DNA of 12,329 nucleotides, from the NCBI RefSeq assembly GCF_003334315.1, contig NZ_QOWR01000084.1; one strand, written 5' to 3'. Position 1 is the stretch's first letter. Each line of letters begins with the position of its first letter. This stretch comes from Escherichia coli. GTDB lineage: Bacteria > Pseudomonadota > Gammaproteobacteria > Enterobacterales > Enterobacteriaceae. Shown here piece after piece: positions 1-3,000 of the stretch. Below the pieces are notes generated by a model. It ran no database searches and was not told where the DNA came from. It saw only the letters and a list, made by a program, of their open reading frames with translations. The translations under genes were made by a program, and so were the position numbers.

Positions 1-70
1 CGCGAGGCATCGTCTTAACGAGGCACCGAGGCGTCGCATTCTTCAGATGGTTCAACCCTTAAGTTAGCGC

Positions 71-3000
71 TTATGGGTTGATCACCCCACCCCACGGTTC
101 ATCGACTAACGCATCAAGATTGTTGCGGAAAATCTCCTGCGGCGTTTCACTACTTTGTAGCCGGATATTGCTCGCCTGCTCGGGCAACATCAGCGCGTTC
201 TCGCCACCGCCGAGCATGACATTTTTCTGCTGTTCAACGGGCCAGCTGTTGTCCACAAAAGACAGTTTTGTGCTAATGCTGTCCTGCACTTGCCCATTTT
301 GTTGCAGTTCTGCACTTAACAAGCCAGATTGCTGAATATTCTGCGTCAGCGAAATATAATTCGCCCCTTTGTGCAGCGTCAGCGTCTGGCGCATCTCAGC
401 GCCTGCAAATTTAGTCACCAGCGCCACCGGTTCGTTATCCTGCTGACTGAAGATAAACAGTCCTGCCGCCGGTTTGTCGCCCACGCGATACACCGTTGGC
501 ATACTCCACTTCATGTAGAGATTTTTTTCCGAACGCAGATAAGCACGCCCCTGCCCGACCAGCCCGTCGCCGTTCATCCCACGCGCGGTGATACGCCAGC
601 GGGTTAACGAATCAGGCATCAGGAACGTGAAATACGCTTTGCCTTGTTTATCGGTTGTGAGTGACGGCATCCATGCCGCGGTATCCACCTCTTCACGCCG
701 TGGACGTTCAAGCATTTTTACTCGCCGCTCGCTGCGGTTAGTTGCGCCAGGCGCAACCGGCTCGCTGGAGAGCGCCTGGTCGTAGCTGATAAACGACAGA
801 CTGGAGCTGGTACGCACATTGTTACGCCCCAGCGGATAGAAAAATTTGCCGATATTCGGCGCGATTTCTGGTTGCAGCGCGTAGATCATTTCATCGACCA
901 CGCCTACCGTTAGCTGCGCAGAAACAGGTTTACCTTTCAGCGACGAGGTTAATTCGACATTGACCAGTTCACCAGGCTGGTAATGGGTTTTGTCCGTTTT
1001 CACCCGGATATCAAGCTGAGGAACGGCAACTTTGATCCCGGCGTTCTGAAAACTGTACTGACCATTACGGGTATACAGCACCGAAAAAGTGATGTTAGGC
1101 GCAAAGGAATTGCTCACTCGAACCCGGGCTTCATACTGGGTATCGTTTAAACGTTGTAGCGTTAGCCAGTTTGCCGGATGCGAAAGCAGCGACTGCTGTT
1201 CCACGCGATCGCGTTCCAGCGTCAATAATGCTTCATCAATTGGCTCCGGAAAGGTAATCAGCATCTTCGCGGTTTCGCCTGGCTGGTACAGCGTTTTATC
1301 CGCCACGATATCTACCGTACCAGTATGCGCCGTGCTGCCCTTACCGCTGACGGCATGACTTAACCCAGCGAGAATTAAGCCGTCTTTATCGCGTAATGTC
1401 AGATTGTAGTTGCCAGGTTTAGCGAAATTGACGGTAAAGGATTTGCCGCCTGACGGTAGCTCTCCGCTATGGCTCGTGCGGTCTTCGAGACGCAACCATT
1501 CATACGTAACAGGAACCTGTTTTGAAGATTCCAGCGCGGCATAACGGAACACAACCGACTCGCCGCTATTACTGTATTGTGCGGCGGTACTTAAAGAGTA
1601 ATGCGCCAGGCCGCGTTCAATGAGGATCTCTTTGGTGGTGGTGACGCGATACGCCGCGCCGTCACTGGCGGAGACGGTTAACAAATAGCGGCTCGGTTTA
1701 TCGGCGGCGGGGAGATTTAACGCCACATGACCGCTGGCGTCGGACACCGTTTCGCTGCCTTCCAGCGACACGGGGAAACGTCCGGCATAACGCAAATCGT
1801 TACCGACCATTGATAATTGCTGAGCGCGCAAACTTAACTGCACGCGGGCATTTTTTACCGGCTCGCCATCCGGGTAGAGCAGTTGCAGTTTGCCGCTGAC
1901 CGCTTCGCCAGTTTTGAACTCTTTTTTGGCGAGAGCTAAACCAATCTCGAAATGTGGCTTGATGTAGTTTGCCACGCGAAAACTGCTGCTATAGACCTGA
2001 TTGCGGTAAGCAAGACGTAACTCATAACCTCCGGCTACGGCATTTTCTGGCAGGCGGAAACTTCCCTGCCCGCCATTGCGCGCATCCAGCGTGACATTGA
2101 CGGTTTGCAACAGACTGCCGTTGGCGTCCAGCACCGAAAGCTTCGCCGGGGCGCTGACGATGGGGGATGAATGCAACGGATCGTGGAACTCGCGGCCGAT
2201 CACTTTAACATCGACACGATCGCCTGCGCGATATAGCGGGCGATCGGTAAAAATATACAAGCGGGTGTTGTAGATTTCGCTTTCGTAGAAGAAGTTCTCG
2301 GAGACAAAAACGCCGCCTTCAGCATCCTTAACCAGAATGTATGAACGTTCTGGCGATATATGTTGTAACTGCAAGGTACCGCTGTCATCGGTCACACCGC
2401 GGGTCATCACGCCAAGACCGTCAGTCCACAAGATCTCTGAGCCGGGCTTCGCTTCACCCTGTTTTTTACCCGCGGTCCACACCAGAAGCTCTTTGCCTGA
2501 CACTTTGCTAAGCGCCACGGTATCGGAAACAAACACCACCGTCGTCGCCCGATACCCACCAACCATCGCCTCGACGAGGTACAGTCCCGGCTCTTGTTGG
2601 CCGAGAGGAATATAAATGTTACCCGGCTGCGGCGAGATGAAATTGCTGGATGCGCCTTCCAGTTTTACCCCTTGCTGCGGCTCGAACGGTTTAGCCTGCC
2701 ATAGTGGATAACGGAACTGTTTCACCAGGGGATATTTTTTCAGCGGGGAAAACTGGTTGTTCTGTACATAACGGGAAGGTTTAATAATGGCATTGCCGAG
2801 CTGTAATTCGGGTAACGCCTGAGTCACATTCTGCCGTGACTGAGAAGAGAAAGTACGCTGCATCACGCGGCGAGATTTGCCGTACCAGTTATCCCACAGC
2901 CAGGTTAGCGTATTGTTCAGCCCGTCGCCCAGATATTGCGGTTGCACCACAATGCGATGCAGGTTTTTCTGCTGGCGCAAAAATGCCATCGGGTCAGGAA

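Follow-up and report, generated by a model that had tools for sequence, protein, structure and literature searches.

Truncation of the alpha-2-macroglobulin gene yfaS at an IS186 junction in Escherichia coli

IS186, also listed as IS421, is an insertion sequence (IS) of the IS4 family with a DDE transposase, InsL. Its target is GGGG(N6/N7)CCCC, at which it inserts in either orientation, with only 35 sites of the N7 type in the K-12 genome and with some sites hit repeatedly (Lee et al. 2016, PMC5009759); its hot spots include the lon promoter, fimA and menC. The gene that concerns us here touches on a second described system, that of the type II bacterial macroglobulins, which, as exemplified by MagD, trap proteases without a thioester (PMC5764988), with MagD working in complex with the products of its own operon (PMC5764988; PMC3735191). 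We analyzed a 12,329-nucleotide stretch of Escherichia coli DNA (contig NZ_QOWR01000084.1 of assembly GCF_003334315.1, below called the window and always meant at its full length), at one edge of which the alpha-2-macroglobulin (A2M) gene yfaS, read from the minus strand, breaks off. With high confidence we attribute this break to IS186, which would have inserted in yfaS at a sequence matching its preferred target, duplicating 11 bp and truncating the gene. The features around the break are as follows, in window coordinates.

1..75, plus strand: right end of IS186 (IS4 family), its last 75 bases, non-coding, downstream of the insL transposase gene, which lies past the window edge
53..75, minus strand: 23-bp terminal inverted repeat of IS186, CATAAGCGCTAACTTAAGGGTTG on the minus strand, containing both TAA codons named below
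59..61, minus strand: second in-frame TAA, likewise in the IS186 inverted repeat (CT-TAA-G)
71..73, minus strand: TAA ending the truncated yfaS open reading frame (ORF), from the IS186 inverted repeat (CA-TAA-G)
74..3307, minus strand: N-terminal fragment of yfaS, a type II bacterial alpha-2-macroglobulin, with MG2, bait-region and A2M domains kept and ending ...PWGGVINP
76..86, no strand assigned: one copy of the target-site duplication, GGTTGATCACC, 11 bp (13 bp, GGGTTGATCACCC, if the ambiguous terminal C/G is counted as target), belonging to the target GGGG-TTGATCA-CCCC

Window bases 1–75 are the exact last 75 bases of K-12 IS186A (L005 1655–1729). In the genome ES3, which is identical (100%) to window 1–5600, the element is present in full: 1339 of its 1339 bases are those of IS186A of K-12 MG1655, and it is bounded by perfect terminal inverted repeats of 23 bp, starting CATAAGCGCTAACTTAAG, one of which is window 53–75. 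The transposase gene, outside the window, ends in ES3 97 nt ahead of window base 1, and its product of 370 amino acids (aa), InsL, scores 133 bits against the IS4-family model NF033592 of NCBIfam (cut-off 115), with a Pfam DDE_Tnp_1 match for the transposase in the draft contigs introduced below. Megablast with window 1–600 as query and 5426 complete E. coli genomes as database matched the yfaS part in 5375 of them, the match starting at base 75 in almost all. The query is fully covered in ES3 only, and PI12 covers 53–600, an end point due to the inverted orientation of the IS there, which leaves the 23-bp repeat as the shared part. All yfaS homology thus stops at base 75, where IS186 starts. 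A previous reading of the window, made from its sequence only and without database searches, had taken this place for a disruption point rather than a natural C-terminus, and had judged 1078 aa too short against the roughly 1500 or more expected; both judgments hold, with yfaS continuing past base 75 in 5375 of the 5426 genomes and with intact YfaS counting 1504 aa.

What the element has split can be read from genomes with an unoccupied site. In intact genomes the empty site is GGGG-TTGATCA-CCCC (GGGGTTGATCACCCC), and the GGGG(N7)CCCC motif is present only in such an empty locus. Comparison of the occupied site (ES3, PI12) with the empty one (CP53, in which yfaS is uninterrupted at 1504 aa) gives 1337 extra bases and a 13-bp overlap, GGGTTGATCACCC; counting the terminal C/G with the IS, in line with the reference copy, one obtains a 1339-bp IS and an 11-bp duplication, GGTTGATCACC. 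The geometry is like that of K-12 IS186A itself, which sits in GGGG-ATCACT-CCCC. Judged by its bases, the empty yfaS site is an exact fit to the published IS186 target with an N7 core. At the same position K-12 yfaS reads GGTGTTGATTACGCC, three substitutions (encoding G-V-I-N-T) that destroy the target, and the yfaS hot spot is therefore confined to lineages in which the GGGG...CCCC allele is present. Taken as 60 nt around the motif, this allele occurs without change in 96 complete genomes, and 715 more have it with one to three mismatches.

The junction is shared with four other assemblies, ES3, PI12, JOQO01000043 and JNMI01000019. In RefSeq, the order in ES3 is a yfaS N-fragment (pseudogene, 'missing C-terminus'), an 'IS4-like element IS421 family transposase', a yfaS C-fragment (pseudogene, 'missing N-terminus'), yfaQ and yfaP; in PI12 the order is the same, but the transposase gene is on the opposite strand. 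The two drafts carry the identical junction, JOQO01000043 in the opposite orientation and JNMI01000019 in the same one. Since both orientations occur at the same base, at least two independent IS186 insertions have taken place at this position of yfaS. On the far side of the element an ORF of 465 aa starts at a GTG within the duplicated target (VINPGSRL...), and this ORF is found on 8 further contigs. From these assemblies we infer that the genome of the window likewise holds a complete IS186, with a yfaS C-fragment predicted on its far side.

A simple insertion is not the only event that could leave such a junction. An IS186-mediated deletion or inversion between copies could share it, and the far side would then be without the yfaS C-fragment, yfaQ and yfaP. 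Several observations speak for this improbable course. The window ends inside the IS and reaches only 75 bases into it, so that everything beyond, the other junction included, lies outside. Its IS content differs from that of ES3 by a separate event in yfaL, which is intact in ES3 and cut by an IS3-family end in the window. ES3, moreover, matches the IS-end-containing query at five places, and partner copies for recombination may thus exist. Opposed to a rearrangement is that all four other assemblies with the junction fit simple insertion, with ES3 and PI12 showing the full IS, the duplication and the C-fragment and with the far-side fragment on 8 contigs, and that the flanks are near-identical to their ES3 counterparts, with 0 mismatches over 5.6 kb and 2 over the 7 kb that follow. 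Taken together, we consider a deletion or inversion very unlikely and retain insertion of IS186.

The sequence-only reading had favored a nonsense or frameshift lesion in a continuous yfaS, the gene going on past the window edge with its remainder in about 1.5 kb beyond. The idea is reasonable a priori, yfaS of K-12 MG1655 being a pseudogene in which a point-type lesion has left a stop in frame at codon 1368 of 1534, but the K-12 stop lies some 295 codons downstream of the break seen here, a place at which K-12 carries no IS. Moreover, window 1–74 is without similarity to yfaS in any of the 5375 genomes and matches the IS186 end base for base. A point lesion, refuted by the comparison of occupied and empty sites, retains virtually no probability: yfaS homology ends at base 75, where IS186 begins, and the adjoining 1.5 kb would be IS.

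The two stop codons that had drawn attention to the locus also belong to the element. In the ORF list of the window, the minus-strand ORF 71..3307 has an ATG start and a length of 1078 aa. A stop scan found TAA at 71–73 and a second in-frame TAA at 59–61, with three codons (9 nt) in between, both as described before, and beyond the latter no stop in this frame for 19 codons (GLNHLKNATPRCLVKTMPR) up to the window edge at base 2, again in line with the earlier description. The remaining two minus-strand frames are closed, as had been said, but by TAA at 64–66 (plus TGA at 52–54 and 43–45) and TAA at 15–17, and not at 65–67 and 17–19. By simple arithmetic, the chance in random sequence of a second stop within four codons is about 17%, and that of 19 stop-free codons about 40%, so that the tandem stop and the open stretch are both within what chance would give. 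Both are there because the IS186 end has a fixed sequence. In ES3, identical here, the 'reopened' frame closes after 38 further codons and contains 13 stops across the IS. The reopened frame does not continue yfaS; its 19 codons belong to the non-coding end of IS186 that follows insL.

In the yfaS frame the junction reads GTG ATC AAC C/CA TAA GCG CTA ACT TAA GGG, that is V-I-N-P-stop-A-L-T-stop (the slash marks the junction). The inverted repeat of IS186 puts a TAA directly after the codon of Pro-1043, in the numbering of the Prokaryotic Genome Annotation Pipeline (PGAP), and a second TAA four codons on, and no foreign residues are added to truncated YfaS. With the same 23 bp carried by both ends of the IS, either orientation yields an identical product. 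The length of the ORF depends on the start chosen, being 1078 for the longest ORF, 1073 for the K-12 start (MDTQRF...) and 1043 for the PGAP start, and the break falls at residue 1043 of 1504 (PGAP start) or 1073 of 1534 (K-12 start). The PGAP start is GTG 3202 on the minus strand, within an apparent signal peptide; the K-12 start at 3292, 30 codons upstream, would include the signal peptide and overlaps yfaT. On this basis the 1504-aa RefSeq models may be N-terminally short.

Two draft genomes are the source of a database protein ('MG2 domain protein') that equals the 1043-aa product exactly, which could speak for a natural short isoform with residue 1043/1078 as the genuine YfaS C-terminus in this lineage. 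The same draft contigs, however, have IS186 right after the stop, a junction by which the short isoform is refuted. Intact orthologues ending at the equivalent residue had been named as the finding that would refute a disruption, and they do not end there: near-identical intact alleles, with a single residue changed in the N-part, run on for 461 residues, as in CP53, and the part missing here is conserved and folds as TED plus MG10. A genuine short form can be all but disregarded. Nor does a wrong join of 75 repeat bases to the contig end deserve more than negligible credence, for although about 75 IS bases stand at both window ends, as is typical of short-read contigs, the IS begins exactly at the first base of its inverted repeat and at a consensus IS186 target, and the identical junction is found in a complete chromosome and in independent drafts.

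The fragment retains the Pfam domains MG2 (314–410, E 5e-19), A2M_BRD (631–776, E 1e-16) and A2M (841–923, E 6e-12). For the C-terminal part Pfam returns A2M and bMG10 (E 7e-6) only, leaving the TED-like domain there unnamed, and NCBIfam assigned no family to either part of YfaS. A search of PDB sequences with intact YfaS as single sequence likewise gave no match, and a family profile was needed: built from the C-terminal 581 residues (alignment A1), it matches Salmonella A2M (4u48, E 8e-9) and E. coli YfhM/ECAM (5a42, E 3e-8). In this profile the family segment YPYGgvEQTASRLLP is aligned to YPYGCLEQTASGLFP, GGVIN of YfaS standing at GCLEQ of 4u48 and 5a42, and the IS junction lies one codon past GGVIN. 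Intact YfaS of 1504 aa has no CxEQ motif anywhere. The lost part is conserved across the family, with 42% mean column identity.

We modeled residues 924–1504 with AlphaFold, at a predicted local distance difference test (pLDDT) score of 83 and a predicted template modeling (pTM) score of 0.81. The model consists of a beta domain, an all-alpha domain (model residues 98–362) and C-terminal beta domains, with the breakpoint at model residue 120, where the alpha domain enters its second helix. Its best Foldseek matches are Salmonella A2M (4u48), ECAM (5a42, and 4ziu, a fragment from MG7 to the C-terminus), complement C5/C3, A2ML1, CD109 and TEP1, with E values of 1e-16 to 1e-17 against the type I bacterial A2M structures. 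In the modeled structure, truncation removes the predicted thioester-like (TED) domain, save its first helix, and the C-terminal MG10. Of the earlier statement that the thioester and C-terminal domains would be missing, the loss of the TED-like and MG10 domains stands; a thioester is not lost, intact YfaS being without CxEQ, as is to be expected of a type II macroglobulin (PMC5764988). Literature searches returned no paper on YfaS with a thioester and no biochemistry on E. coli YfaS itself. As a separate observation, the W-G-G-V-I-N-P codons at the vestigial thioester site, TGG GGT GGG GTG ATC AAC CCC (window 74–97, minus strand), are what creates the IS186 target, and the IS thus cuts YfaS exactly where the thioester would sit.

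The truncated yfaS is probably a loss-of-function allele, and truncated YfaS, as predicted from its domain content, is probably unable to close a trap around a protease. Insertion is probably also polar on the downstream genes: in the intact locus (CP53) the yfaS stop abuts the yfaQ start, and with yfaQ translation directly following the yfaS stop, an untranslated 1.35-kb insert should lower the expression of yfaQ and yfaP. A scan of the IS for promoters revealed no promoter-like site, and terminator-like sites in the IS are at chance level, which supports polarity neither way and counts to that extent against our account. One terminator-like hairpin, GCCGGAAAGGGAGCTCCGGC followed by TTTTTTATTA (L001 4503–4522), is seen inside IS186 and is oriented with yfaS transcription; given the chance-level number of such sites, it hints at polarity only weakly. 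A bolder reading is that the yfaS target is a recurrent, possibly selected, on/off point of a Mag-like periplasmic protease-defense operon in E. coli lineages carrying the allele, with the 1043-residue product perhaps mimicking the ~100-kDa processed MagD rather than being inert; we regard this as speculative and most doubtful.

Other broken forms of yfaS are met in E. coli and Shigella. Products of 959 and 999 aa, found on 42 and 54 contigs, lack about 500 internal residues, and C-terminal fragments of 522, 509 and 376 aa stand for hundreds of sequences; K-12 yfaS (L004 4799–9403) has its in-frame stop at codon 1368. This suggests that yfaS is dispensable and decays recurrently in E. coli and Shigella, to which the present insertion adds evidence. 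In practical terms, the proper label for the 1078-codon ORF is an IS186-interrupted pseudogene fragment and not a short macroglobulin, and the yfaS site offers a clean natural example of the GGGG(N7)CCCC hot spot. Where a frame seems to 'reopen' at the edge of a window, this may be no more than the end of a mobile element at which a short-read contig broke. Beyond correct annotation the finding has little importance.

Upstream of yfaS, the window contains two further genes of the operon:

3226..3849, minus strand: yfaT, DUF1175/MagC family, upstream gene of the same operon (ES3 annotation L001 8226–8849; Pfam MagC match)
3846..5534, minus strand: yfaA, DUF2138, first gene of the yfaA-yfaT-yfaS-yfaQ-yfaP operon (ES3 annotation L001 8846–10534)

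At the opposite edge, the last 75 bases (12255–12329, junction at about 12253–12255) are not yfaL and instead form the terminus of an IS3-family (IS2-like) element, which may be ISKpn19. These bases are 100% identical to a copy beside IS26 and qnrS1 in strain LH09-a, in which a frameshifted transposase gene starts some 15 nt further on. In K-12 and ES3 the autotransporter gene yfaL codes for 1250 aa; here it breaks off near codon 266, and the 960-aa ORF 9307–12189 represents a part of it only. With about 75 IS bases at either end, the window looks like a whole short-read contig broken at repeats. By the intact yfaL of ES3 and the 2 mismatches, the window stems from a close relative of ES3 and not from ES3 itself. 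GyrA (5683–8310, minus strand, 875 aa) is identical to that of K-12 and has no quinolone-resistance substitution at Ser83 or Asp87.

Set against the described systems, the locus resembles known IS186 insertions. The sequence of the element is that of K-12 IS186A without change, and the 23-bp repeats, the N7 target and the geometry of the duplication are alike, as is the use of both orientations at one site, seen also in mutation-accumulation lines (PMC5009759); the difference is the site in yfaS, which is unnamed in the main text of PMC5009759. With the K-12 MG1655 yfaS pseudogene (b4500) it shares the gene, the operon yfaA-yfaT-yfaS-yfaQ-yfaP and the inactivation, window bases 77–12254 being 99.88% identical to K-12. 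K-12, however, has an in-frame stop at codon 1368 of 1534 and no IS, whereas here IS186 has cut at K-12 codon 1073. As for MagD and the mag operon of Pseudomonas aeruginosa, the intact YfaS orthologue corresponds in having MG2, bait-region, A2M, TED-like and MG10 domains and no CxEQ, and in belonging to a multi-gene operon with a MagC-family gene; the window copy, unlike MagD, is cut at the vestigial thioester position and is without the TED-like and MG10 domains, and non-covalent trapping of proteases after bait-region cleavage is a feature shown for MagD only (PMC5764988). The type I A2Ms (E. coli YfhM/ECAM, Salmonella A2M) are alike in their C-terminal fold, with similarity to their structures undetectable from a single sequence, and differ in that YfaS has GGVIN for GCLEQ, no thioester, and a place in another operon and not beside pbpC. 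IS186 insertion in yfaS is in this light an ordinary event, already known in kind and in the RefSeq annotation of ES3 and PI12, where pseudogene fragments flank the IS.

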